64,000 nt of DNA, taken from assembly GCA_035326705.1 (NCBI GenBank), contig DAOLES010000001.1, positions 116,762 to 180,761 on the forward strand, read 5' to 3'. Positions 27,403 to 63,896 of this stretch are shown here, piece by piece. The notes below the pieces were generated by a model that was not told the DNA's origin, made no database searches, and saw nothing but the letters and a program-made list of their open reading frames with translations. Every line of letters begins with the position of its first letter. The stretch's first letter is position 1. Both the position numbers and the translations under genes were made by a program. The DNA comes from Oligoflexia bacterium (lineage in GTDB: Bacteria > Bdellovibrionota_G > JALEGL01).

Positions 27403-27750
27403 ATGAATTTAGAGCTTTTGTCAGATCAACAAATTTTAAAAATTTTAGGTGAGCGTTTTGAGGATTACCGTAGGGTCCAACAGATGCAGGACCAAGATAT
27501 CTTTAAAAGGGGTGGCGTTAAAAAAGACGCGCTGGCAAGTTTTAAAAAAGGCAGAAATATTTCTTTACTCAATTTTATAAAAATTCTTAGAGGGGCAGGT
27601 TTGTTAAGTCATTTAGAAACAATGATTCCTGAAAATGAAAAATTTAGCCCAATCAATGAGATAGAAAATAAGTCAAAAGAACACCCGGCAAGAATACATA
27701 AAAAGAAAAATAAAAAAGAGCCTACATTTCATTGGGGAGATGAACAATGA
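27403..27750 (+). CDS. hipB: XRE-family HTH protein, putative HipB-like antitoxin
   Basis: HTH-like segment. 4-nt ATGA overlap with the downstream HipA gene. Confidence 0.5.
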   Translation: MNLELLSDQQILKILGERFEDYRRVQQMQDQDIFKRGGVKKDALASFKKGRNISLLNFIKILRGAGLLSHLETMIPENEKFSPINEIENKSKEHPARIHKKKNKKEPTFHWGDEQ

Positions 27751-29069
27751 CGCCCCCATGCAGTATTCATTTATGGGGTACAACAATAGGAGCTGTGTCC
27801 TATAAAAAAAATGATCAGAGTCTTGCACTATTTGAATATCATCCCAAGTTTTTAAATTCTAATATTCAACTGTCACCAATCTCTATGCCGCTAAGACCTG
27901 GGGTCTTTTCTTTTCCCAATATAAGTCAAAGAACATTCAAAGGTTTACCAGGTATTTTGGTAGATAGTTTGCCAGATAAATTTGGTAATCAGTTGATAGA
28001 TCAACATATGGCCAGCAAAGGTTATGCTTCAAATGAAATCAGTGCGATAGACCGTTTACTTTATGTTGGGCAACGTGGGATGGGAGCACTTGAATATCAG
28101 CCAGCTCTCAATATGAATGAAAATGATGGATATATGGGAGGCATGTTAGATTTGAATGCATTGGCAGAATTAAGCCAAGTTATATTATCCAGAGAACAAA
28201 AATTTCTACAAAAAATAAAAAACAGCAAAGACCAACAAGTGGTGTTTGATCTTCTAAGAGTTGGAACAAGTGCTGGGGGCGCTAGAGCAAAAGCTTTAGT
28301 AGCTATTCATAAAAAAAATGGAGACGTTTTACCACCCAATGTGATGAACCCACAAGACTACAGCCATTGGTTGGTTAAATTTGATGGGGTGGATAACAAT
28401 CAAGATAGAGATGGTAAAGATCCTAAAGGTATGACTGTTGTGGAGTATATCTATTCAATGATAGCCCAGAAGTGCGGTATTGATATGCCAAGATGTCAAT
28501 TGTTAGAAATACACGGGCAAAGGCATTTTTTAATAGAACGTTTTGATAGAGTTTTAAAAAATGAAAAGTTGGATAAACTGCATTACGCTTCATGGTGTGG
28601 CTTAGCACATGCCCATAGAGATGAAACACTGGCTTATAGCTATGAACAATTGGTTTTACTGATGCGTCAATTGAACTTACCACAGAGCGATATCGTTAAG
28701 CTTTTTAAGCGGGCAATGTTTAATATTATTGGTAGAAATCAAGATGATCATACTAAAAATTTTGGCTTCTTGATGGATAGAACAGGGCAGTGGTCGTTAT
28801 CACCGGCGTTTGATATGACTTACGCCTATGATCCAACAGGACAGTGGACTAAGACTCATCAAATTACACTGAATGGCAAAGGAAATGACTTTCAACAACA
28901 GGACTTATTGAGTTTTGCACAATATTGTAACCTGTCAAAACGACAAGCAAAGGATATCATACAAAATACAATAGATGCCTTTTCTCAGTTTGAAAAATTA
29001 GCTAAAGAATATGATTTGAATAAACCTTTAACAAAAACTATCAGCAGTACGTTAAGATTAAAATTATAA
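27747..29069 (+). CDS. hipA: HipA-family Ser/Thr kinase toxin (full length: HipA_N coupling domain + HipA_C)
   Basis: N-terminal GLPGILVDSLPDKFGNQL and C-terminal catalytic NQDDHTKNFGFL...SPAFDMT motifs. 440 aa. Confidence 0.85.
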   Translation: MTPPCSIHLWGTTIGAVSYKKNDQSLALFEYHPKFLNSNIQLSPISMPLRPGVFSFPNISQRTFKGLPGILVDSLPDKFGNQLIDQHMASKGYASNEISAIDRLLYVGQRGMGALEYQPALNMNENDGYMGGMLDLNALAELSQVILSREQKFLQKIKNSKDQQVVFDLLRVGTSAGGARAKALVAIHKKNGDVLPPNVMNPQDYSHWLVKFDGVDNNQDRDGKDPKGMTVVEYIYSMIAQKCGIDMPRCQLLEIHGQRHFLIERFDRVLKNEKLDKLHYASWCGLAHAHRDETLAYSYEQLVLLMRQLNLPQSDIVKLFKRAMFNIIGRNQDDHTKNFGFLMDRTGQWSLSPAFDMTYAYDPTGQWTKTHQITLNGKGNDFQQQDLLSFAQYCNLSKRQAKDIIQNTIDAFSQFEKLAKEYDLNKPLTKTISSTLRLKL

Positions 29070-29301: not shown

Positions 29302-31506
29302 TCAGTTAAAAATTTCTTTAAAGTTAATATCTTCGCTGGCCAAAGTAATACAGGTTAAGGGTAATTTTTCTGTCTTCTTTCTTAGTGAAGTGTAATAATC
29401 AATGTATGAGTCAACACTCTCTTCTGCTTGAGGAGAGCGCATGCCAAGAAAAACTAAATCTGCTCCGTTAGAGTTTTGTTGAATTACTTCAAATGGATTT
29501 TGATTTTTTTCACAAATAAATACTTCTGGCGTAATATTCAAACGGCCAGACTTTACAAATTGTTTTAAAACTTCTAAAGCTTGCTCTTGATCTTCACCTT
29601 CTCGAGTTGTTGTTTTTAAGAAGATATTGGTTTTGCCTTGAGGAGAGAATTGTTGCATGAGATGAGCTAACGCCAACATTAGATTTGCATTTTGTTGCTC
29701 ACGACCCCACCAGATATCAATCCTTTTTAAAGATAGATGTTGTGATAATTCTAATTCTTCTTTTTCATCATCATTTCTATTTTTTAAAATGAGAACATTT
29801 TTTTCTTTTCTGTAACAAGATTGTATTAAAGAAATATAATCAGGTAAGTTTTCATCTTTATCACAATCACCAAAAAGTATGGTGTTGGGTCTAATAGGGC
29901 CCATGCCGTAACTAAAAATACTGTTTTTTATACTTTTCCAAGTGTTTTCACCAATCGTAACGGAAACCAAAGCTGATATATGCTTTTTATTTAGAAAGTC
30001 TTTGATTGATTTTTCAAGTTGAACACTTCTGTCATCAGTAAACTTATCACCAGTAATGCTGGCACCAAGGCTCAAAAAACCTTTATCTTTAGTAAGCATG
30101 TTTGCAAATTGAACAAGAGACCAACGACTTTTGGGTGAGCCAGTAAGAGCATAAATATTGGGTCGCCATGAACGTGCATCCGGTTCCATACCGTCAAGCC
30201 TATAAATAGCATTTCTGACCACGCTCATCCATAAACCTCTTCTAATATCAGACCAATGACTGCCTAAATTTCTTTTTTTTGTGATGATATAAATGCTAGC
30301 AACACAAGCTATTGCAATAAAAGTGGCGCCAGCATTAATCATAAGCATGGCTGCCAAACAACCAATAGCACCAAACAAACTGGTTAGAAAATGAGTTTTA
30401 AACTCAGGACGCCATGATGGGTTGCCCATCAATTGTTCAAAAGCAGCAGATAAATTAAGAAAACCATATGAAGTTAAAAAGAACATAGATAAAATGGATG
30501 CAATTGCATTTAGGTCACCCAAGAAAAAAACACAGGCAGCAACAAGTAAAGAAAAAAATGTGGCACGTTGGGGGATGTCTTTTTCATCTGAGCCTTTAGC
30601 AAAAAATGAAAAAACAACTCTATCTTTTGCCAATGCTTGCAAAGTTCTTGGGGCACCTAGCATTGCACCCAATGCACTTGATAAAGTTGACCCCCATAAT
30701 CCCAAGATTACAAACAAAGGAATCAAGGCGACTGTTTTAATAATAAGGGAATCGCTTAATAAAACATCATTTGTAAGGTCTAAACTATCTAATTTAATGA
30801 CGAATAGTGCATAAACGATGAATCCAGTAATGACAGCCAATAGAGTGCCAATAGGTAATGCCTTGGAAGCATTTTTTAAATCACCTGACATGGATAAACC
30901 GGCTTCTATACCCGTAACGGCAGGAAAAAAAACCGCAAATACTGCCCAAAAAGAAGCTTTGGGTTGAATCAGAGTGTCAAGGCTAGAGCTATAACTGGTA
31001 TCTTGCCCAAGAAAAAATGATGCAATCGATATTGCAATCAAAACTAAAATGATGCCCTGAGTTCTTAATGCAAAGTCAGTAGATTTATAAGCTGTAAAGC
31101 CTGTCAGACCAAGAAATAAAAGCTTTAGTGGAAGCTCAGGAATAAAGGGAAATAACATTATGACTGACTCAGCAAAACCTGTGATATAAAAGGCAATGCC
31201 TAAGCTTTGGGCAAAAAATAAAGGTATTCCAACTGCAGCACCTGCTTCAAGACCAAATGATCTTGAGATCATGAAGTAAGCACCGCCACCTTCAATTTTC
31301 ATGTTTGTGGCTGTAGAAGCAATGGATAGAGCTGTTAGAAATGTTATTAAGGATGATAAAGTTACAATAATTAAGGAGGACACTAACCCTACTTGTCCCA
31401 ACATCCAACCCATTCTTAAGAACATAACTGCACCAAAAATAGTCAGTATGCTTGGAATATAAACACCCTTTACCCAGCCAAATTTTTGTTTGTTATCTGT
31501 CAGCAT
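29302..31506 (-). CDS. SLC12-like cation-chloride cotransporter family protein (APC superfamily) with C-terminal cytoplasmic domain
   Basis: N-terminal KFGWVKGVYIPSILTIFGAVMFLRMGWMLGQVG matches the SLC12 (NKCC/KCC) signature. 12 TM plus ~300-aa soluble C-domain. Confidence 0.7.
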   Translation of the reverse strand: MLTDNKQKFGWVKGVYIPSILTIFGAVMFLRMGWMLGQVGLVSSLIIVTLSSLITFLTALSIASTATNMKIEGGGAYFMISRSFGLEAGAAVGIPLFFAQSLGIAFYITGFAESVIMLFPFIPELPLKLLFLGLTGFTAYKSTDFALRTQGIILVLIAISIASFFLGQDTSYSSSLDTLIQPKASFWAVFAVFFPAVTGIEAGLSMSGDLKNASKALPIGTLLAVITGFIVYALFVIKLDSLDLTNDVLLSDSLIIKTVALIPLFVILGLWGSTLSSALGAMLGAPRTLQALAKDRVVFSFFAKGSDEKDIPQRATFFSLLVAACVFFLGDLNAIASILSMFFLTSYGFLNLSAAFEQLMGNPSWRPEFKTHFLTSLFGAIGCLAAMLMINAGATFIAIACVASIYIITKKRNLGSHWSDIRRGLWMSVVRNAIYRLDGMEPDARSWRPNIYALTGSPKSRWSLVQFANMLTKDKGFLSLGASITGDKFTDDRSVQLEKSIKDFLNKKHISALVSVTIGENTWKSIKNSIFSYGMGPIRPNTILFGDCDKDENLPDYISLIQSCYRKEKNVLILKNRNDDEKEELELSQHLSLKRIDIWWGREQQNANLMLALAHLMQQFSPQGKTNIFLKTTTREGEDQEQALEVLKQFVKSGRLNITPEVFICEKNQNPFEVIQQNSNGADLVFLGMRSPQAEESVDSYIDYYTSLRKKTEKLPLTCITLASEDINFKEIFN

Positions 31507-36533: not shown

Positions 36534-37823
36534 ATGTTGTATAACTTAGTGTCTTTATTGGGTATAGTCGGTATTATTGGTATCGCATGGTTGATGTCAA
36601 ACAATAAAAAAGCATTTCCATGGCGTCAAGTTCTGTGGGGATTAGGCTTACAATTTCTCATTGCCATTTTTGTTTTTGTTTTGCCTGTAGGTAAAACTTT
36701 ATTTCTTTGGATGAATGATTTAGCGGTGACTTTAATTGGATACGCTACAGAGGGCGGAAAATTTGTTTTTGGTGGTTTGGCAACCCGTAGTATGGCTACT
36801 AAAGAAGGTGCTGCGCCTGGATCAGATTTTGTGTTTGCCTTTGAAGTTCTGACAACGGTTATTTTCTTTTCCTCATTGATTGGTGTTCTTTATTATATAA
36901 AAGTTATGCAAGTACTGGTTAAAGCTTTTGCTTGGGTGATGCAAAAAACCATGAAAGTATCAGGTGCTGAAGCTTTGACAGCGTCGGCCAATATTTTCTT
37001 TGGCCAGTCTGAAGCCCCTATTGCAGTAAAACCTTATATTCCTAAGATGACTCAATCAGAAATCATGTCCATGATGACAGGTGGATTTGCTACCGTTGCT
37101 GGCGGTGTTATGGCAGCGTATATTGGAATGCTACATGAGGTGTTTCCAAACATTGCAGGACATTTGATTTCTGCATCGGTTTTATCTGCTCCAGCAGCAT
37201 TGATGCTAGCCAAGGTAGTTTTTCCTGAAACTGAAAAACCCTTAACTCAAGGTGAAGTTGCTATGAATGTAGAAACTGAAGATGTGAATGTTTTGGATGC
37301 AGCGGCTACAGGAGCTGCCTCTGGATTACACTTAGCTTTAAACATTGGCGCCATGTTGATAGCTTTTATGGCTTTATTGGCTATGATTAATGCCATTATT
37401 GGTTACTTTGGCTCTATGCTAGGCATTGATAGTTTAAGTTTGCAAAAAATCTTGGGTTGGACGCATTACCCTATTGCTTTGATGATGGGGGTTTATCCTC
37501 AGGATGCCATGACCGTAGCAACGCTTCTAGGAGAGAAGTTGATCTTAACAGAATTTGTGGGTTACTTAAACTTGACTCATATTTTAAAGGAAGGTGTGAT
37601 TCAATTGCATCCTAGGTCAGTTGTGATTGTAACCTATGGCTTATGTGGCTTTGCTAACTTTGCTTCCATCGCGATTCAAATTGGCGGTATAAGAGCAATT
37701 GCCCCTAGTAGATCTTCTGACTTAGCTAAGTTAGGTTTAAAAGCGATGTTTACTGGGGCACTGGCAGCCTATTTAACTGGAAATATTGCTGGGATCTTTT
37801 TTTCTGGTAATACTATTTTATAG
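36534..37823 (+). CDS. nupC: Concentrative nucleoside transporter NupC family
   Basis: CNT family length and topology. Nucleoside_tran N and C regions (…GGFATVAGGVMAAYIGM…). Confidence 0.85.
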   Translation: MLYNLVSLLGIVGIIGIAWLMSNNKKAFPWRQVLWGLGLQFLIAIFVFVLPVGKTLFLWMNDLAVTLIGYATEGGKFVFGGLATRSMATKEGAAPGSDFVFAFEVLTTVIFFSSLIGVLYYIKVMQVLVKAFAWVMQKTMKVSGAEALTASANIFFGQSEAPIAVKPYIPKMTQSEIMSMMTGGFATVAGGVMAAYIGMLHEVFPNIAGHLISASVLSAPAALMLAKVVFPETEKPLTQGEVAMNVETEDVNVLDAAATGAASGLHLALNIGAMLIAFMALLAMINAIIGYFGSMLGIDSLSLQKILGWTHYPIALMMGVYPQDAMTVATLLGEKLILTEFVGYLNLTHILKEGVIQLHPRSVVIVTYGLCGFANFASIAIQIGGIRAIAPSRSSDLAKLGLKAMFTGALAAYLTGNIAGIFFSGNTIL

Positions 37824-37855: not shown

Positions 37856-37893
37856 AAAAAAAGCCTATGCAGTTTTCAGTGCATAGGCTTTTT
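37856..37893. terminator. Bidirectional rho-independent terminator (A7-AGCCTATGCA-GTTTTCAG-TGCATAGGCT-T4/5), copy 1
   Basis: 10-bp perfect stem, 8-nt loop, A-tract 5' and T-tract 3'. Lies between convergent nupC and deaminase genes. Confidence 0.75.
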
Positions 37894-37923: not shown

Positions 37924-38742
37924 CTAATTTGATCCAAGCTTGGCATCAATTTCCTCACGAGTTGTAGAAAATATTTTTTCACTGAGGTTTATAAGATCTT
38001 TATCATCCGTTGAGAGTTGCTTAAAACTAAGATTTTGACCGCCAGCAATCCATTGCCATACAAATGGGTTGTATTTGAATTTTTCGCCAATCGCCATGGC
38101 ACCAGCATTTGAGGTTTTTTGAAGGGAATCTTTCCCTAAGAACTCATTTTGAACCAGATCACCATCTATGGCGGATGAAATAGATAGATTTGCTTTAGCA
38201 TTGATAATCATCACCATACACATGGGACAAGGCTCTAAAGTTCCATAAACGTAATAGCCATCTTTACTAAATTGTTGAGTGCCTTTGTTTGTATTGACAG
38301 GGTAACTGGTAACAGGCTCAACTAGGTTAGATCGAGCTATGTTTTCTTCACTCATTTCAAGATTGTATTGGTTTTTGCCATTATTTAAGTAATGTTTATA
38401 GGCAACTGCATCTTCTAAAGCTCTTGCTTCGGCATGGTCAGTTATACCAGGGCCTGTTACCATTGCGTTACGTCCGGGAAACTCATAAATAACACCATCA
38501 TTAACTAAAAGTACAAGGGCACCAATACCGTAGTTACCTTCATTAAAGGCCGCTAAAGCTGAAGCCAATGCTTTTCTTGCGTAGTAAGCATGTTGCCCAA
38601 TTTGATAAGTATTTATTGTTTTTGCTAAGTAACGCTCAACTTGATTAGCTATATGTACATCGTCAGTATTGGTTTGAGCAATAGCAGATTGATGACTGAA
38701 AATTAGAAAACAAATGCTAAATAATAAAGATAGTTTTTTCAT
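37924..38742 (-). CDS. Secreted (Sec signal peptide) cytidine/deoxycytidylate-deaminase-fold zinc enzyme
   Basis: Signal peptide MKKLSLLFSICFLIFSHQSAIA. HAE (…DHAEARALE…) and PCxxC (…EPCPMCM…) CDA-fold zinc motifs. GGGGG RBS 8 nt upstream of the chosen ATG. Confidence 0.65.
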   Translation of the reverse strand: MKKLSLLFSICFLIFSHQSAIAQTNTDDVHIANQVERYLAKTINTYQIGQHAYYARKALASALAAFNEGNYGIGALVLLVNDGVIYEFPGRNAMVTGPGITDHAEARALEDAVAYKHYLNNGKNQYNLEMSEENIARSNLVEPVTSYPVNTNKGTQQFSKDGYYVYGTLEPCPMCMVMIINAKANLSISSAIDGDLVQNEFLGKDSLQKTSNAGAMAIGEKFKYNPFVWQWIAGGQNLSFKQLSTDDKDLINLSEKIFSTTREEIDAKLGSN

Positions 38743-38860
38743 TGTAAACCCCCAATTCAATTATGGTTATATTGAAGTCTTAATAGCAGGTTATATGTGA
38801 TGCTTCAAATGAAAATGATTAAAAATTAGCTCTAGGTTGTGTTTTAAAGGCTTACAATAT

Positions 38861-39727
38861 ATGTCAGCCAACATGATTGATGTAGAAATATTGAGAGCAA
38901 AAATAAAGACTGCAGTGGAATATTTATCAGATGCTAATGTAGCGAATATAAAAGCAAAATATCTCATTGTTTTGGGTTCTGGGCTCAGTGAAGCGATTGA
39001 TGATTGGGAAATGATTCATGCATTTGCATATAAAGAAATTCCCGGGTTTCCTGAACATATAATAGAGGGGCACAAAGGTGAAGTGAGGCTTTATAAAATT
39101 AATGGTAGTGATGACTATGCCTGGGTATTAACTGGAAGATTTCATAGTTATCAAGGTTATGACCCTGCTGAGTGTGCTATACCTATTAGAGTTGCTGCTG
39201 GATTAGGGGTGAGCCATGTTATTCTTACTTGTGCAGCTGGAGGAATTAATGAAAACTACAATCCAGGCGATATTATGTTCTTAAATGATCATATCAATAG
39301 TACTGGAATGAGTCCATTTAGAGGGCCAAATTTGGATGAGTTTGGACCAAGATTTTTAGATCTAACAGAAGTTTATGATGATGCTTTTTTACAAGACTTA
39401 AAAAGAGCTGCAAAACAAGCAGATATTTTTACCCAAGAAGGTGTTTATGTTTGGCACTGGGGCCCAGAGTACGAGACACCTGCAGAGATAAAGCGTTGGG
39501 CAATTTTAGGTGCAGATGCAATTGGAATGTCTATGGTTCCTGAAGCTATGGTGGCAAGACATCATCAGCTAAAAGTGGCAGGTATTGCTTGTATCAGCAA
39601 TAAAGCGGCAGGTATGTCAGAAAAAGGAAGAAAAGGTAAGCTTGACCATAAAGAAGTATTAGAGGTTGGTCAGCAAAGCAGCCAAAAGCTCAAAAATATT
39701 TTAAATCAGTATTTTCAAAAAAATTAA
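38861..39727 (+). CDS. Purine nucleoside phosphorylase, PNP/MTAP family 2
   Basis: GSGLS…GRFHSYQGY…LTCAAGGIN…GDIMFLNDHIN motifs of PNP-I/MTAP enzymes. ATG at 38861 preferred over the track's TTG at 38837. Confidence 0.75.
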   Translation: MSANMIDVEILRAKIKTAVEYLSDANVANIKAKYLIVLGSGLSEAIDDWEMIHAFAYKEIPGFPEHIIEGHKGEVRLYKINGSDDYAWVLTGRFHSYQGYDPAECAIPIRVAAGLGVSHVILTCAAGGINENYNPGDIMFLNDHINSTGMSPFRGPNLDEFGPRFLDLTEVYDDAFLQDLKRAAKQADIFTQEGVYVWHWGPEYETPAEIKRWAILGADAIGMSMVPEAMVARHHQLKVAGIACISNKAAGMSEKGRKGKLDHKEVLEVGQQSSQKLKNILNQYFQKN

Positions 39728-39734
39728 GAGGTAG

Positions 39735-40289
39735 ATGACTATGTTAGATTATCCAAAAGATTACTTTTTACCTGCACTTATTAGCCAAGAACAACTAAAA
39801 AAGAAAATACATGAATTAGGACAGCAAATTACAAGAGACTATCAAGATAAAGAGATTTTATGTATTGGTGTTTTAAACGGAGCAGTTCAATTTTTAGTGC
39901 ATTTAATTGAAGAAATTAAATTACCGCTTAATATAGATTTTATATCAGTCTCAAGTTATGGCGACTCAACTGAATCAAGTGGAAAACTATCGTGGCGTCT
40001 TAACTTATTGCAAGATATTAGCAATAAACATGTGATTATTGTTGAGGATATTATTGATACCGGCATTACATTGCATGAGGTTAAAAAAGAGTTTTTAAAG
40101 CAAAATCCAAAGTCATTAAAGATAGCGTCACTGTTCTCTAAACCTTCGAGACGAGAAATAGATGTAGATATAGATTATCTTGGGTTTGAAATTGAAAATC
40201 ATTATGTTGTCGGCTTTGGCTTTGATTATCAAGGCTATTACAGAAACTTACCGCACGTAGCAATCCTGCCTGAAGACAGGTACAAATAA
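39735..40289 (+). CDS. hpt: Hypoxanthine-guanine phosphoribosyltransferase
   Basis: PRPP-binding motif VIIVEDIIDTGIT. 184 aa. Confidence 0.9.
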   Translation: MTMLDYPKDYFLPALISQEQLKKKIHELGQQITRDYQDKEILCIGVLNGAVQFLVHLIEEIKLPLNIDFISVSSYGDSTESSGKLSWRLNLLQDISNKHVIIVEDIIDTGITLHEVKKEFLKQNPKSLKIASLFSKPSRREIDVDIDYLGFEIENHYVVGFGFDYQGYYRNLPHVAILPEDRYK

Positions 40290-44531: not shown

Positions 44532-45734
44532 TTATAAAGGCCAAAGGGTTTTACCAATATCGGTTCTATAAAAACTTCCATAAGACTGAATATCTTTTGC
44601 ATAGTCATATAGCTTCTTTAAACAAGCGTTTAAATTATCATCTGATGCAATGATGTTAACAATACTGTGACCTTGTTTTGCATGTAAAGAGTTCCCTTTT
44701 TTAATGACATCCTCCCAAAAATAAGCACAGTCAGCATGTGTTTTTTTTTGAATAGGATAATGATAGTGTTGGTTTTTATTTGGATATTGGTGCGATACGA
44801 TATGAAGTAGACATGAATAAGTTTTATTTGCTTTAATTTTTATATCAAAAGCTTTACTAAGGTGTAGTTTTTTAAAAGTATTAAAAAAATTATCTATACT
44901 TAGCATAATCATGGGGCCAGAACTAACGCCCAAACGAGTGTTAAATTCTAATACCTGCCATAGATTATTGCTTCTTATTGCAGTTACTTGCAAAGGACCG
45001 CAATAATTAATTTTTTTAAACCAAGGTTTAAGTGGTGTAATAAGTTGCTTCACCAATTGGTAACGATCATTTTGATCCATTTCAATAAGTCCACCCATTG
45101 GTGTAGATAATGTTTCACCTAAATTGCCTGTGTATAGTTTTTTATACTCTTGGTTGGTGCATAGAGGATAAATCTTTCCATGGTTGATAAATACCGTATG
45201 ACCGGCTTCATTTTGTCCAGCATACTTTTGCAAAAAAACACCATCGCTGCAGTCAGTTTGCTTTAATAAGGTCAGTGTTTGTGCATAACTGGTACAAACA
45301 GTTGTTTTTACTTTACTCATTGGAGATGAAAATCTATTTTTAATGACATAGGCGGCAGGATTTTTTTTTATGAAATTTAAGGCATTGTTTTGATTGCAAA
45401 AAGCATAAGAATCAACAAAAGCTATATTGTATGTATCACATAAAGTTTTAGCAAAAAATCGATCTTTTTCAATTGCTAGGGCATGTTGATTCACGGCTAA
45501 CGTTTTTATATTGTGTGTTTTAAGGAAAGCTTCATCTATAAAATCACGCCAGTTTATGGATGTCGGGTATAAGTAATCTATACGATGTTGAATAATGTAA
45601 TCATGTAGATCTTTTTTAGTTAAGACATCATGCGTTGACAAGTAATGTATGTCTAGATTTTTATTGTTAGATTCACAGTTTTTAAGGGCTTCATACAAAA
45701 TATTATTGCCTAGAATGAGTAAACGTTGTTGCAT
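44532..45734 (-). CDS. PurD-like (phosphoribosylamine-glycine ligase family) ATP-grasp enzyme, divergent
   Basis: QEYKKLYTGNLGETLSTPMGG vs PurD QDHKRVGDKDTGPNTGGMG. VLEFNTRLGVSSGPMIM vs PurD VIEFNCRFGDPETQPIM. N-terminal GGREHA motif replaced by NNILYEA. Confidence 0.55.
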   Translation of the reverse strand: MQQRLLILGNNILYEALKNCESNNKNLDIHYLSTHDVLTKKDLHDYIIQHRIDYLYPTSINWRDFIDEAFLKTHNIKTLAVNQHALAIEKDRFFAKTLCDTYNIAFVDSYAFCNQNNALNFIKKNPAAYVIKNRFSSPMSKVKTTVCTSYAQTLTLLKQTDCSDGVFLQKYAGQNEAGHTVFINHGKIYPLCTNQEYKKLYTGNLGETLSTPMGGLIEMDQNDRYQLVKQLITPLKPWFKKINYCGPLQVTAIRSNNLWQVLEFNTRLGVSSGPMIMLSIDNFFNTFKKLHLSKAFDIKIKANKTYSCLLHIVSHQYPNKNQHYHYPIQKKTHADCAYFWEDVIKKGNSLHAKQGHSIVNIIASDDNLNACLKKLYDYAKDIQSYGSFYRTDIGKTLWPL

Positions 45735-58719: not shown

Positions 58720-59310
58720 ATGAGTCAGTTGTCATTGCTTAGTGGATTAGATTCTAATCAGTATAAAATTTTGTATTTTGATTTAGAAACCAAGAAATCA
58801 GCTGAAGAAGTAGGCGGGTGGTCAAATATTAAAGATATGGGGATGGCATGTGGTGTTTTATATGATTCTGAAGACGACCTATACCATGTTTACTTAGAAG
58901 ACCAAGTTCATGAAATGATCAAACACATAAAATCTGCGGATTTAATTGTAGGTTTTAATCATATCTATTTTGATTATAAAGTTTTAACGGCATATGATAA
59001 TTTTAATTACAATAGATTAAATAACTTTGATTTATTATTGGATATTGAAATGCTATTAGGCAGAAGATTAAAACTAGATGCCTTAGCAAAAACTACCTTA
59101 AAAAAGCAAAAAACTGCTGATGGATTACAAAGTTTACAGTGGGTTAAAGAAGGAAAAATAGATCAGGTCATCGATTACTGCAAGGCTGATGTTGAAGTAA
59201 CAAAAGATTTATTTTTATTTGGAGTTGAAAATAATTTTATTTTATACCCAGATAGAGGTCAAAAAGCTCAGCTTAACGTGAATTGGAATATTGATAAGTT
59301 GGTTAAGTAA
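58720..59310 (+). CDS. DEDDy-type 3'-5' exonuclease (DnaQ-like/RNase D-like fold)
   Basis: Exo I LYFDLET. Exo II LIVGFNHIYFDYKVL. Exo III YCKADVEVTKDLF. Confidence 0.6.
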   Translation: MSQLSLLSGLDSNQYKILYFDLETKKSAEEVGGWSNIKDMGMACGVLYDSEDDLYHVYLEDQVHEMIKHIKSADLIVGFNHIYFDYKVLTAYDNFNYNRLNNFDLLLDIEMLLGRRLKLDALAKTTLKKQKTADGLQSLQWVKEGKIDQVIDYCKADVEVTKDLFLFGVENNFILYPDRGQKAQLNVNWNIDKLVK

Positions 59311-62300
59311 TGAAAATGAAACGTTCAGTCGACATTTTTTTATTTGTAACTTTTTTGCTGGCTTTATCAGTATTTGCAAAATCAAATTCTTATTTAAATT
59401 TTCAAGAACGTCGCCAGTTATTTAAAGATGAGTTGCAGTTCAATGACTCACATGAAGTTTTACGTTATGCAAGTAGTCATTTGCATCAACATGAATATTA
59501 CTACGGCAGTAGCGGGGATCTTTTTGAGCAATTTGTTCAGTTTTTATTTCCACTGACTGGAAGAGAAAATAGGATTATGTTTATGCCACTTTCTGCTTGG
59601 GGCCCTAAAAAACCTCAGTATAAAAAATTTGATTGGCAAAGATATGAGTCTCAACACTTTGTATTTTATTATGATAAAAATGCTTACTCTTCATTTAAAA
59701 AAGCGCATGCATTTTTAGAAGATGATTTTGCACGTAACAACGAAATTTTTTCAGTTAGAAATAAGTTTTTAAAAAAGATTCCCATTATAATTTATCAGTC
59801 AAGAAAAGATTTTGAACAAACAAATATTGTAAGTGGTCCAGTGCCAGAGGGCTTAGGAGGTGTAACCGAAATTTTTTCATGGAAAAGAGCCGTATTTCCC
59901 TTTGAAGGTGAAATGTCAACTTTTGAACATGTGACCAAACATGAAGGTACGCATATCTATCAAATAGCTAAGGGAGCAAAAAACTTACCATTATGGTTTA
60001 TTGAAGGTTCTGCTGAAACTAATTCAATATACTGGGATGCTGATGCGGAACAATTTATTAGAGATGCGTATTTAAATGATCTGTTTTTTGATATTGATGA
60101 TTTATGGCAAATTCGTGGCACTTGGTTGATGTATAAAATTGGCAACTATATTTGTAATTTTATTCGTGAAAAGTACGGTGAGAGAGCTTTGCAAAAAATT
60201 TATCAAAATTCAGTTTCCTTGAATTTTAATGAAAACATTAAATTATCTTTAGGAGTGTCTTTGCAAGAACTCAATAGAATGGTGCAAGCATCATTATCTA
60301 TGAAATATGGGTATTTATATAAAAAAAATAATCCATATGACAAAGCTCTAAAAGTACAAAAGAGATCCGTTGTTTTACATGCATATAAAAACTTTTTTAT
60401 CAGTGGTAAAGGAAATGGCTCTAGTAATGCTTTATACATTAACTATATTGATGAAATGAGTAAAGTACATAAGAAAAAAATAATTTCAGATAAAAAATTA
60501 AATAGTGAATCATTGAATTATTTTAGAAAAGGGGCATGGTTGAATGAATCTAGTTTAGTTTATTCAATAAAAAATGGGTCTCATGATGAAATAAGATTAC
60601 TTAATTATACATTTGATAAAAAAAAGAAACGTTTTAAGTTTGATAAAAAACCACATTTAATTCGTTTTCAGAAGATAAGATCGATTTTTTCACCTGTAAT
60701 AGTTGGTGATAACAAAGTAGTATTTATTGGTATCAAAAACGGTTTTAGCAATATTTATCAATATAATTATATTGAGAAAAAACTTGAACAAATAACAAAA
60801 GATTCTGCACATTATTCAAATTTAGATTACTCAGCTGCTAAAAACACAATAATTTTTTCTAAAGAATTGGAGCGTTCTCAAGATAGAATTTATTATAACA
60901 GAGATATTTTTGAATATGATTTAAAAACTCAGAAAATAATACCAATTACGCAAACTTCAGATATTAGAGAAAATAATCCTAGGTATTCAATATCTGGAAC
61001 TAATATTATATTTTCATCAGATGAAGATGAAACACATAATTTATATTTGTATAACACGTTAACTAGAGCCAAACAAAAATTGACAAATCATCCTTCAGGT
61101 ATAAAAACAGCCGTTTGGTCTCAAAATGAATCATTGTTGTTAAATGTGAATAATCGGTTTGTTTCCGATATTGTGCACATGCCACTTCCTAAACCCTTTG
61201 ATATGCTTAATAATGAAATTAATTTTGATTCTTCAAAATCAATATCAGTTTTTTCAGAAAATAACGCCTATATATATTCTCCAAAAAATTTAGATGAAAA
61301 AACTACAGAAATTGAAGTTGAATTCAACTCAAATAAAAAAATTACCACTGGTAACAATAATACTTTTCTTCAGCACAATGATCAGAAATTTAAAGTTCAA
61401 AAAATTGCTGCTTTTGAAAATGAATTGTTTATTCAGGCCACAAATATAAACGATGATAAAAAAAGAATTCAGTCACTTGAAGATAAAATATTATATTTTA
61501 GGGTTAACAAAAATACCCTTGAATCTATATATGATCCAGTTATTCAAAAAGATTCGTCTTCAAAATCAATTAATCAAAAAATAAGTAAGATATTAAAAGA
61601 TAAAGTCATTATTTCAGTTTGGGAGTTTAAGGATACAGCAGATGCTTTAGTTCTTGTTAATGAAAAACTCAGTACGCAGGATAAGTCACAAAATAATAGT
61701 AAAGCGATAACAAATTTATACTCATGTGATTTGGAAAAAAATAACTGTGAAGTGTTGCGAGGGTCAAGATTAGAAAATTTTAAAAAGGATATTTTTTGGG
61801 TAGCAAAATTAGAGGGGGGCTCTTATTTGTGGACTTTATCTGAAAATAAAAATGGTCCATATGAGATTTTTTTGTATGATCATAAACTAAAAAAAACCAT
61901 AAAAGTAGGTAATGAGGTTTTAAGATTTAAAGTTGCTGAAACTCAAAACTCATTTTCTATGTTGGTAGGATCTGACTTTATTGTTTACGATTTTTCAGAG
62001 GAAAAAGGATGGACTGCAAAACAGTATGAGCCAAATGGCAGTATCATAGGGTATGATTTTTTAAAAAAATCAAATGACTTTATGATTTTAACCAGCCATA
62101 AAAAACATTTAAATATTCATTTACTTAAAAAAGATAAAACAGTTTTAAAAAAAGTAAAACATTCTATCAATAACCTTGTTCTTGCAACAATTAATAAAAA
62201 GACTGGAGATTTTGTTGTTTATGCAAAGTCTCAAAATAACTCAGAGATGATCGATAAGCTTTATTATTATGATAAAAAGACTGAAGAATTTTATGATATA

Positions 62301-63896
62301 TCTATTAGAGGCAAACTCAAAACATTTGATCAAGTTGTTTTTATTGATGATTTCTTAGTCTTTACTGGAAAGAATTTTTCTTATGAAAAGTCTGAAACAT
62401 GGGTTTGGAAAAATAAGGAAAGAAGGCAGCTTAAAAATATTATTGAAGCTAAGAGTTTAAATGATAACCAATCTTGGGTAGTGAACTTAGAAAATGATTT
62501 GTACCTTCTTCAATTTGATAATGATAAGTATAAAAAGATAGTCAGTGATAGTTTTGGTTTTGATGTACATAGTAAAAAAGTTTTTTATGCATCTACAAAC
62601 AATGAAAAATATAATATTTATCAATATGATGTTGATTTAGATAAAAATAGTTTGTTGATAGCCTCTAAAAATCATGCGTTTAAGCCTAAGTTTTTTAAAA
62701 ATAAACTCTATTATCAATCTTATGATGGTAAAGTTATTAATGTAAGAGAGTACGTTTCAGATAAGAATCAAGATTCATTAGCGTTTTCATTGAAAAAACA
62801 TCACGTTGTGATGGATGCAAGTAATGAAAATCTAAAAAGAATGCGTTTTGATTTGTTACCTTATCAAGAATCTATATATTCTGGCCCAGAGTTAACTTCA
62901 CCAAAGTCGTTTCCTATTGAAAACTCCTCCAAACCAGCAAAAGATATTTATAAGCTGCAATCTTTGTTAGCAGCGGCAGCCTATGATGGGAATAACTTTA
63001 GGATCCTTTTAAATGGTTATGTGGATAATATATTTAGTGACAAGGGAGCATTTGTAAATCTTATTTTACTTGGTGAAAATAAATTTGCTGTATTTGGAGT
63101 TTCAAACTTACGAAATGCCACTTCTGCATCTGTTTTTTATAATGACAGAGAAAATATTCAAAATTATGGAATTAACTTTAGCAAACGGTTTAATCTTGAT
63201 CGTTATAGAGCATTTAATATTTTAACTGAATTAGAAAGGCAAGTATATGGTGAATCAACACCTGACACATTAAGTTATGTTGATAGTGACGTTGAAAATA
63301 AAAGCTTTAATGTTGTAAAGCTCTCTAGTACTTATGATCACGATGTAACACTATGGGATAGACATGGTCCTATAAGTGGAAGTAGAGTGTTTTTTAGATT
63401 AAGTAGTGGTTTAGATTTAACTGAACAAAGGCTTGCTTATTACAGTGGAAATGCGGATGTTAGATTTTACAACTCAATACTAAATAAATTTAGCTTGGCA
63501 CATAGGTTGAGCGCAGGAAGCAGTCAAGGTGCTTTACCAGAAGTATATTTAGCTGGGGGAAATATATCTTTTAGAGGTGTTAATTTTGATGATTTACAAG
63601 GTCAGAATTATGCAATTTTTAGCGAAGATGTAAGGTTGCCACTATTTGATTTTATTGGGGCAAAGTTTTTTGATCCTTTAGATAGTTTTGTTGGTTTTTT
63701 AACACGCTTTTTTGATGTTAGAACAGGAGCTTTTATTGATGTGGGAGATGTTTGGTACAATAATGAAGATTTTGAGCTTATGTATGCCAGTGGATTTTTT
63801 GCTAATGTGCCTAGTTTATTAGGGGTGAATTTGAGGTTTCATTACTCAGTTTGGGGTAAGCAAGGCTTTGGTTTTTGGATTGGGAGTAATTGGTAA
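59310..63896 (+). CDS. Giant secreted chimeric protein: N-terminal HExxH peptidase (Peptidase_MA_2-like) + PD40/TolB-like beta-propeller repeats + C-terminal Omp85 (Bac_surface_Ag) outer-membrane beta-barrel
   Basis: Signal peptide MKMKRSVDIFLFVTFLLALSVFA. HEGTH…WFIEGSAE (HExxH + EGxAE). Mid-region PD40-like repeats (…IIFSSDEDETHNLYLY…). C-terminal region with Omp85 loop-6-like YLAGGNISFRGV and aromatic terminus GFGFWIGSNW. TAATG overlap with the upstream exonuclease gene. Confidence 0.65.
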   Translation: MKMKRSVDIFLFVTFLLALSVFAKSNSYLNFQERRQLFKDELQFNDSHEVLRYASSHLHQHEYYYGSSGDLFEQFVQFLFPLTGRENRIMFMPLSAWGPKKPQYKKFDWQRYESQHFVFYYDKNAYSSFKKAHAFLEDDFARNNEIFSVRNKFLKKIPIIIYQSRKDFEQTNIVSGPVPEGLGGVTEIFSWKRAVFPFEGEMSTFEHVTKHEGTHIYQIAKGAKNLPLWFIEGSAETNSIYWDADAEQFIRDAYLNDLFFDIDDLWQIRGTWLMYKIGNYICNFIREKYGERALQKIYQNSVSLNFNENIKLSLGVSLQELNRMVQASLSMKYGYLYKKNNPYDKALKVQKRSVVLHAYKNFFISGKGNGSSNALYINYIDEMSKVHKKKIISDKKLNSESLNYFRKGAWLNESSLVYSIKNGSHDEIRLLNYTFDKKKKRFKFDKKPHLIRFQKIRSIFSPVIVGDNKVVFIGIKNGFSNIYQYNYIEKKLEQITKDSAHYSNLDYSAAKNTIIFSKELERSQDRIYYNRDIFEYDLKTQKIIPITQTSDIRENNPRYSISGTNIIFSSDEDETHNLYLYNTLTRAKQKLTNHPSGIKTAVWSQNESLLLNVNNRFVSDIVHMPLPKPFDMLNNEINFDSSKSISVFSENNAYIYSPKNLDEKTTEIEVEFNSNKKITTGNNNTFLQHNDQKFKVQKIAAFENELFIQATNINDDKKRIQSLEDKILYFRVNKNTLESIYDPVIQKDSSSKSINQKISKILKDKVIISVWEFKDTADALVLVNEKLSTQDKSQNNSKAITNLYSCDLEKNNCEVLRGSRLENFKKDIFWVAKLEGGSYLWTLSENKNGPYEIFLYDHKLKKTIKVGNEVLRFKVAETQNSFSMLVGSDFIVYDFSEEKGWTAKQYEPNGSIIGYDFLKKSNDFMILTSHKKHLNIHLLKKDKTVLKKVKHSINNLVLATINKKTGDFVVYAKSQNNSEMIDKLYYYDKKTEEFYDISIRGKLKTFDQVVFIDDFLVFTGKNFSYEKSETWVWKNKERRQLKNIIEAKSLNDNQSWVVNLENDLYLLQFDNDKYKKIVSDSFGFDVHSKKVFYASTNNEKYNIYQYDVDLDKNSLLIASKNHAFKPKFFKNKLYYQSYDGKVINVREYVSDKNQDSLAFSLKKHHVVMDASNENLKRMRFDLLPYQESIYSGPELTSPKSFPIENSSKPAKDIYKLQSLLAAAAYDGNNFRILLNGYVDNIFSDKGAFVNLILLGENKFAVFGVSNLRNATSASVFYNDRENIQNYGINFSKRFNLDRYRAFNILTELERQVYGESTPDTLSYVDSDVENKSFNVVKLSSTYDHDVTLWDRHGPISGSRVFFRLSSGLDLTEQRLAYYSGNADVRFYNSILNKFSLAHRLSAGSSQGALPEVYLAGGNISFRGVNFDDLQGQNYAIFSEDVRLPLFDFIGAKFFDPLDSFVGFLTRFFDVRTGAFIDVGDVWYNNEDFELMYASGFFANVPSLLGVNLRFHYSVWGKQGFGFWIGSNW

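Follow-up and report, generated by a model that had tools for sequence, protein, structure and literature searches.

A TadA-like deaminase with a predicted export signal, linked to purine salvage, in an Oligoflexia bacterium

The described enzymes closest to the protein studied here are deaminases of the cytidine deaminase (CDA) fold. TadA, placed with ADAT2 in COG0590, is the tRNA adenosine-34 deaminase, which acts on A34 of tRNA-Arg; it is a compact cytoplasmic protein of ~150–170 aa with a basic C-terminal tRNA-binding helix. The guanine deaminase GuaD of B. subtilis, NE0047 and the plant guanosine deaminase GSDA carry a C-terminal Tyr cap; in GSDA this is the last residue, Tyr185, which re-caps the active site and is essential both in GSDA and in guanine deaminase (PMC9739398). 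Guanine and guanosine deamination are the sole free-purine activities known for the CDA fold (PMC9739398). Insertions in CDA-fold enzymes gate the active site for small substrates, whereas TadA has its cavity closed by the tRNA (PMC11963756). Here we describe a deaminase gene of this fold in a 64,000-nucleotide stretch of contig DAOLES010000001.1 from an Oligoflexia bacterium; this whole stretch is referred to below as the window.

We consider it somewhat better than an even chance (a probability of about 0.55) that the gene encodes an exported zinc deaminase which acts in purine salvage on a free purine nucleoside or base, most probably adenosine. Compared with TadA and ADAT2, the window deaminase has a signal peptide, a length of 272 aa, an extra N-terminal helix and insertions of ~39 and ~12 aa, and its genomic partners are salvage enzymes. 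Compared with GuaD, NE0047 and GSDA, it has other insertions and an export signal, and its family is without the Tyr cap. The window protein ends in ...AKLGSN, and the C-termini of the family are variable tails that lack a conserved terminal Tyr.

The reading frame starts with an ATG at position 38742, preceded by GGGGG at a spacing of 6 nt. Public gene calls for the same contig contain the identical 272-aa product, and a hypothetical protein from an Oligoflexia metagenome-assembled genome (Bdellovibrionota) matches it at 100% identity. PF00383 (dCMP_cyt_deam_1) matched residues 50–184 with 39.2 bits against a cutoff of 25 (E 6.9e-10). The HAE and PCPMC zinc motifs named in a preliminary description of this DNA held up well: H103-A-E105 and P171-C-P-M-C175 are invariant in an alignment of 22 homologs (A1). 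Among the 51 homologs of the first search HAE and PCxxC were each present in 50, the exceptions being P0048, which lacks HAE, and P0050, a 161-aa fragment lacking PCxxC. The insert of ~58 aa that had been placed between the two motifs needs correction, since 65 residues separate E105 from P171 and ~26 do so in E. coli TadA, which leaves an excess of ~39 aa. About 13 aa of this excess are common to the whole family; the remainder occurs only in a long-insert subgroup. The gene is under purifying selection, with a dN/dS against a 78%-identical ortholog of 0.13 for the whole gene, 0.09 for the core and 0.19 for the insert. No second CDA-fold gene and no bona fide TadA gene was found in the window.

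An AlphaFold model computed from the alignment of the family (pLDDT 91.4, pTM 0.85) contains the alpha/beta deaminase fold. Inside the folded domain confidence was lowest at residues 106–170 (pLDDT 77–83), and the signal segment came out as an N-terminal helix of lower confidence that stands apart from the domain. Foldseek agreed with the assignment, although it matched only the ~150-residue core (TM 0.45 on the query and ~0.75 on the target). The family profile found TadA structures as its best matches (E 1e-11), and hhalign aligned residues 50–272 with TadA 7–164, end to end, at 96% probability. The latter match covers the 'xGAA' loop, the Asp that corresponds to TadA D108, and also the C-terminal helix; the comparison rested on an E. 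coli TadA sequence that was verified only in part against PDB alignments.

Because the model, Foldseek, the profile search and hhalign agree, the predicted architecture is that of a TadA core with three additions, namely an N-terminal helix, an insertion of ~39 aa (alpha2/beta3) and another of ~12 aa after beta4. The preliminary description had left the place within the superfamily to structure prediction, and the model and the profile comparison put the deaminase in the TadA/guanosine/cytosine deaminase clade, far from the toxin deaminases. A parallel for the additions is Msd (Msmeg_3575), a mycobacterial nucleobase deaminase which likewise combines the CDA fold and a small-molecule substrate with insertions peculiar to its lineage; these gate the active site and shape specificity (PMC11963756). 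By analogy with this enzyme, the insertions of the window family (residues 106–170 and 194–207 in the window deaminase) may serve as such a gate.

Several features set the protein apart from TadA itself. The TadA equivalog model NF008113 gave 25.9 bits against a cutoff of 150, the helix equivalent to the tRNA-binding helix has a net charge of -1 versus +4 in TadA, and the mature protein is acidic (pI 5.14). Judging by these sequence properties, the deaminase is neither TadA nor an RNA enzyme; outside the cytoplasm there would be no tRNA to act on. Asn92, His103, Glu105, Cys172 and Cys175 are common to the whole clade and do not separate adenine-type from guanine-type enzymes. No guanine or guanosine deaminase emerged as the closest relative by sequence or by structure.

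Adenosine deaminase (Add/ADA, PF00962) has to be considered as well, as it would share with the window family the proposed reaction (adenosine to inosine) and the same pathway position upstream of purine-nucleoside phosphorylase (PNP) and hypoxanthine-guanine phosphoribosyltransferase (HGPRT). However, ADA is a TIM-barrel amidohydrolase of an unrelated fold, and PF00962 did not match the window deaminase, which is at most a functional analogue. Secretion of such an activity has a precedent in animals, where ADGF/ADA2 acts on extracellular adenosine. The window protein is not of the GuaD/GSDA type, not a toxin deaminase and not a member of the ADA fold.

The toxin deaminases deserve separate attention. 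The polymorphic-toxin deaminases (MafB19, Bd3614-like, DddA, SsdA) share the CDA superfamily with the window protein and leave the producing cell, and the preliminary description had offered a secreted effector acting on nucleic acids or nucleotides as one of two explanations. Such an effector would be directed at competitors or prey, which would suit the export signal and a host in Bdellovibrionota, a phylum with predatory members; the toxin models MafB19 and Bd3614 do produce weak matches, and nuclease genes lie near some homologs. These matches are nevertheless below cutoff (PF14437, MafB19-deam, 23.3 versus 27; PF14439, Bd3614-deam, 12.5 versus 38.5), and structural comparison with DddB, SsdA and DddA gave scores of only 3.9–5.4. 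The acidity of the mature protein also argues against a toxin. No trafficking or delivery module is present, as only the 22-aa signal peptide precedes the domain. Nor is there an immunity ORF beside the gene: its flanks are nupC and PNP, and no ORF of at least 60 aa lies between it and either of them, which confirms an earlier remark that no immunity-like gene was obvious. PADLOC found no defence-system match. We rejected the effector explanation on the structural distance, the sub-threshold Pfam toxin models and the missing immunity ORF and PADLOC match, and regard it as very improbable. An AbiH gene and a type I restriction system stand upstream of the L002/L003 homolog; a defence-island reading was set aside, given that PADLOC returned no match and this context is not recurrent.

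As to export, the N-terminus was read by rule against Sec-type criteria (a positive n-region, an h-region of 7–15 hydrophobic residues and small residues at -3/-1). The segment MKKLSLLFSICFLIFSHQSAIA, followed by QTNT, divides into MKK, LSLLFSICFLIF and SHQSAIA, with an n-region charge of +2, 12 hydrophobic residues in the h-region and Ala at -3 and -1 of the c-region. The signal peptide is kept in the orthologs P0002 and P0003, and the Sec signal noticed initially is well borne out by these features. No lipobox was seen in the N-terminus. As a membrane-spanning anchor the h-region would be too short, and even if the protein were anchored, its domain would face outward by the positive-inside rule.

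The deaminase belongs to a rare family. A word-indexed search gave 51 homologs; when 1.84 billion representatives were searched exhaustively with a profile, only 40 clusters reached E<=1e-30, and 172 reached E<=1e-10. Members come from Oligoflexia, Planctomycetota (including Singulisphaera), Acidimicrobiia, Saccharimonadales and Microgenomates/Roizmanbacteria, and are annotated as 'hypothetical' or, by COG transfer, as 'TadA'. In the literature we found no paper on the family, on an exported bacterial CDA-fold purine deaminase or on a CDA-fold deaminase of free adenosine. The family is best described as uncharacterised and TadA-derived, with an exported subgroup and a function in purine nucleoside salvage.

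The spacing between HAE and PCxxC is bimodal within the family, with short forms at 37–42 residues and long forms at 60–69. A hydrophobic N-terminus was present in 15 of the 21 long-insert homologs and in none of the 33 short forms; two of the six long-insert homologs without it look N-terminally truncated. Because hydrophobic N-termini are confined to the long forms, export appears to be a derived trait of this subgroup that spans at least two phyla, and no accident of annotation. Cys content did not differ clearly between exported and cytoplasmic members.

The strongest link between the family and purine salvage is provided by gene fusions. In P0055 and P0069 the deaminase is fused to a PNP of the inosine/guanosine (6-oxopurine) type. 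P0052 and P0053 combine an active copy, a degenerate copy and an HGPRT-like domain in one chain, and 27 nt upstream of the P0052 gene there is a PNP gene in the same orientation. Separate genes and fusions alike thus repeat the window's trio of PNP, deaminase and HPRT. As a separate observation, the family domain occurs in tandem in P0052, P0053, P0057 and P0070, where copy 1 keeps HAE/PCxxC-like motifs and copy 2 has none (e.g., DIAASRVLE ... EPDPQAMF). By analogy with ADAT2/ADAT3 or with the two-domain E. coli cytidine deaminase, such chains may form a built-in pseudo-dimer of an active and an inactive half.

Gene neighbourhoods point in the same direction. The locus of the 78%-identical Oligoflexia ortholog is fully syntenic with the window. 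In Microgenomates/Roizmanbacteria, of the Candidate Phyla Radiation (CPR), the homolog has on one side an ADA-like gene, with GuaB and GuaA further out, and on the other side PNP plus a xanthine/guanine-type phosphoribosyltransferase (PRT). At L023 the homolog is followed by GuaA and then PNP, and at L038 it follows a PRT. In L007, L021 and L022 two signal-bearing paralogs accompany an inosine-uridine nucleoside hydrolase (IU-NH), an HGPRT-like gene and a guanine deaminase of the canonical amidohydrolase type, which scores 571 bits against a cutoff of 351 with NF006679 and has an export-type N-terminus, ...FRSRRIMIAVLGAILAAIAGPGFSWA. In the planctomycetal locus L010 the order is IU-NH, a gap of 44 nt, the homolog and a DUF2608 gene whose product carries the HAD motif FDFDNT; all three proteins are signal-bearing, and the block is flanked by xanthine dehydrogenase (XDH) subunits, a fused 1359-aa XDH and XdhC.

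In a survey of 140 neighbours at 23 loci, IU-NH, a second deaminase and a GNAT acetyltransferase were each counted three times, and GuaA, PRT and an amidohydrolase twice each. We give the fusions more weight than these counts. The linkage is recurrent and not universal, and the family is tied to purine salvage in independent lineages. Of the two explanations first offered, that of an exported nucleoside or base deaminase serving salvage is therefore well supported: PNP, HGPRT, IU-NH, GMP synthase (GuaA), ADA-like and XDH genes are linked or fused to the family in unrelated lineages, and some of the partners bear signals themselves. The 'salvage-dependent lifestyle' that had been attached to it is not established from the window.

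Two of these loci are worth noting in their own right. L010:6566-9929 is an apparent operon of three signal-peptide proteins among xanthine dehydrogenase genes and would be a candidate extracytoplasmic route from nucleotide to nucleoside to base. The guanine deaminase at L007:4366-5817 (- strand) begins with an export-type signal that contains an RR pair (FRSRRIMIAVLGAILAAIAGPGFSWA followed by KEP), which points to deamination of guanine in the periplasm of a Planctomycetota-like organism, possibly after export by Tat. It is the exported purine-processing set of Planctomycetota that is unusual; the deaminase chemistry is conventional.

We propose the following scheme for the window. In the course of evolution, a TadA-type core would have gained the N-terminal helix and the insertions and lost the basic tRNA-binding surface. 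Signal peptidase I would remove residues 1–22, and the acidic 250-aa enzyme would work in the periplasm of this diderm Oligoflexia bacterium or beyond it. H103, C172 and C175 would hold the zinc-bound water and E105 would shuttle the proton, as in CDA-fold deaminases generally. The substrate would most probably be adenosine or deoxyadenosine and, as a second choice, adenine. The 6-oxo product, inosine, could then be imported by the adjacent NupC-type transporter, cleaved to hypoxanthine by the adjacent 6-oxopurine-specific PNP and converted to IMP by the adjacent HPRT. In this way the deaminase would fill the ADA position of an ADA, PNP and HGPRT module with another fold and in another compartment.

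The choice of substrate follows from the partners. HPRT, GuaB, GuaA and XDH catalyse steps that come after inosine or hypoxanthine; inosine/guanosine-type PNPs are not known to cleave adenosine, and IU-nucleoside hydrolases prefer inosine. With all partners placed after inosine/hypoxanthine in the pathway, the best fit is adenosine (or adenine). Conversion of adenosine to inosine would be the sole step that makes all partners linear, from ADA through PNP, HGPRT and GuaB to GuaA. The enzymes closest to the family in sequence and structure deaminate C6 of adenine, which by analogy is in line with an adenosine or adenine substrate. In the window locus the nucleoside level is favoured because the adjacent transporter is a carrier of nucleosides and not of bases. 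Adenine deamination, the second choice, would lead directly into the step of the HGPRT fusion partner and would duplicate neither the ADA-like nor the guanine deaminase neighbours.

Several observations weigh against this assignment. The window deaminase is not co-transcribed with any salvage gene of the window, and most of the ~24 homolog loci have no purine genes nearby. After Sec export its Cys2His zinc site must form in an oxidising compartment, and the signal has no Tat motif. NupC-type carriers vary in inosine uptake. In CPR an ADA-like gene (PF00962) adjoins the homolog, where an adenosine deaminase would be redundant; the ADA-like protein, however, scores below the adenosine deaminase cutoff, and the CPR homologs are only ~30% identical to the window deaminase. 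A chain from PNP through guanine deaminase and an (X)PRT to GuaA would also make every partner consecutive. Finally, deamination of free adenosine is not known from any CDA-fold enzyme (PMC9739398), and for this reason the prior for such an activity is low.

The alternative chain belongs to the main rival, an exported guanine or guanosine deaminase whose product, xanthine or xanthosine, would enter XPRT and GuaA or xanthine dehydrogenase and serve nitrogen or purine catabolism. Plants offer a parallel in the route from GSDA through a nucleoside hydrolase to XDH. The family, however, has no C-terminal Tyr cap, which is essential in GSDA and guanine deaminase, and its similarity is stronger to TadA, end to end at 96%. 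In some genomes, moreover, the family coexists with the canonical enzyme: L007 and L021 encode the signal-bearing guanine deaminase next to exported family members. An HGPRT-like fusion would be illogical with xanthine as the product, and HPRT salvages guanine without deamination. We therefore regard guanine or guanosine as an unlikely substrate, though one that should be kept in mind.

The neighbour survey bears on two further explanations. One is a deaminase of non-canonical or modified purines or related heterocycles (isoguanine, N6-methyladenosine, 2,6-diaminopurine, aza-analogues, AMP/dAMP or pterin) that would scavenge or detoxify them at the cell envelope. The PNP and HGPRT fusions point instead to mainstream salvage flux, and efflux or detoxification genes are not recurrent among the 140 neighbours; we find this explanation rather improbable. 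The other is an exported cytidine or cytosine deaminase, which would supply uridine for NupC uptake or for inosine-uridine nucleoside hydrolases. CNT carriers do often prefer pyrimidine nucleosides, but the specific partners are all purine enzymes (6-oxopurine PNP, HGPRT, GuaA, GuaB, XDH, guanine deaminase and ADA-like), and uridine phosphorylase, uracil phosphoribosyltransferase (UPRT) and uridine kinase do not recur among the surveyed neighbours. A pyrimidine substrate thus seems decidedly improbable.

Coming back to a purine deaminase acting on adenosine, we also put forward, tentatively and with more doubt than conviction, a broader proposal for the family as a whole. It would be the first CDA-fold deaminase of free adenosine or adenine, a non-orthologous stand-in for the TIM-barrel ADA that was derived from TadA through active-site-closing insertions and that works outside the cytoplasm in Oligoflexia and Planctomycetota together with an exported nucleoside hydrolase, guanine deaminase and HAD-type phosphatase. 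If this is true, it adds an enzyme class, that of CDA-fold deaminases for free 6-aminopurines. It would also mean that an RNA-editing scaffold was turned into a small-molecule enzyme by loop insertions, which bears on enzyme evolution and on TadA-based base editors. Metabolic reconstruction of Oligoflexia, Planctomycetota, CPR and Acidimicrobiia would improve, as an apparent lack of ADA in such genomes could be misread as a salvage gap when the gene is labelled 'hypothetical' or 'TadA'. The proposal points to periplasmic processing of purine nucleosides before uptake, which to our knowledge is little documented in bacteria. The PNP and HGPRT fusions make the functional assignment directly testable.

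The neighbours named in the preliminary description (NupC, PNP and HPRT) were recovered by Pfam and NCBIfam models (Table 1), with the NupC-type gene just under the cutoff of TIGR00804 (425 versus 442 bits). The window PNP passes both the purine-nucleoside phosphorylase equivalog and the inosine/guanosine/xanthosine subfamily model, matches solved trimeric PNPs with E = 9e-65 and retains the base-recognition Asn of C-I-S-N-K-A-A-G.

Table 1. Coordinates of the deaminase gene, its parts and the adjoining features in the window.
Feature	Position	Strand	Evidence or remark
NupC/CNT-family nucleoside:cation symporter	36534..37823	+	Pfam Nucleos_tra2_N, Gate, Nucleos_tra2_C
Hairpin between A-run and T-run, convergent gap between nupC and the deaminase gene	37858..37893	.	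Minimum free energy -22.2 kcal/mol, z = -6.5
Predicted exported CDA-fold (TadA-like) deaminase gene	37924..38742 (stop included)	-	ORF and translation, 272 aa
P171-C172-P173-M174-C175 codons (two zinc-ligand Cys)	38218..38232	-	Aligns with TadA PCVMC
Residues 106-170, helix alpha2 and family-specific insertion before strand beta3	38233..38427	-	Spacing, hhalign gap versus TadA
H103-A104-E105 codons (zinc-ligand His, catalytic Glu)	38428..38436	-	Aligns with TadA H57-A-E59
Signal peptide, residues 1-22 (MKKLSLLFSICFLIFSHQSAIA), predicted signal peptidase I cut after A22	38677..38742	-	n/h/c regions, A-x-A
Divergent intergenic region between the deaminase and PNP genes, 118 bp	38743..38860	.	Contains the deaminase Shine-Dalgarno
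Trimeric-type PNP, inosine/guanosine family	38861..39727	+	NF006054 295.8 vs 218; TIGR01697 271 vs 197
Hypoxanthine(-guanine) phosphoribosyltransferase, HPRT	39735..40289	+	TIGR01203 197.4 bits vs 150

The deaminase gene adjoins both nupC and the PNP-HPRT pair and is in an operon with neither, because it converges with the former across the hairpin and diverges from the latter. The hairpin has a perfect 14-bp stem, none of 200 shuffled sequences folded as stably, and it is probably a bidirectional intrinsic terminator; a consensus terminator scan did not pick it up, and separate folding confirmed it. The divergent region presumably holds the promoters of both the deaminase gene and PNP-HPRT, although a promoter scan of the region gave nothing above shuffled expectation and did not locate them. 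It is 87% identical to the orthologous region in L001, with long identical blocks that include TTCAAATGAAAAAT and GTTTTAAAGGCTTACAATAT, and shared regulation is possible, though the comparison brought out no regulator site. Rfam at gathering thresholds gave no match anywhere in the window, so no riboswitch or other RNA control was seen.

Some other genes near the homologs may be of interest. A second deaminase-like protein of 320–331 aa ('deam2') recurs beside or near family members (L003:6741-7733, L020:1159-2148, L010:449-1405). It carries HAE, TLESCSQC and a conserved C-terminal GKRGTPH[KQ], looks unrelated to the family and was matched by neither NCBIfam nor PADLOC; the protein that comes after it in L003 is of the BNR/Haem_oxygenase_2 kind and 1029 aa long. 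At L006:3931-5571 a protein with SNase and Endonuclease_NS domains (522-547 aa) and a hydrophobic N-terminal segment is encoded divergently from the homolog. A protein with Peptidase_S8 and S1-P1 nuclease domains is encoded downstream of the homolog at L003:10973-12729.

Elsewhere in the window, a 400-aa ATP-grasp protein (44532-45734, -) gave weak GARS_A/GARS_C matches only (PurD-like), and its ORF as listed overlaps an alanine racemase ORF. Public gene calls place a HipA-family toxin kinase gene (Couple_hipA, HipA_C) at 27747-29069 (+). A 734-aa protein of the AA_permease/SLC12 type (cation-chloride cotransporter-like), encoded at 29302-31506 (-), adjoins a Ppx-GppA phosphatase; the SLC12-type family is uncommon in bacteria. 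For one gene in the left-hand part of the window, a look-up of its genomic context gave no entry. The 1528-aa ORF at 59310-63896 (+) has Tricorn_N as its sole Pfam match and is preceded by genes for a TPR protein, unannotated small proteins and a class A penicillin-binding protein.

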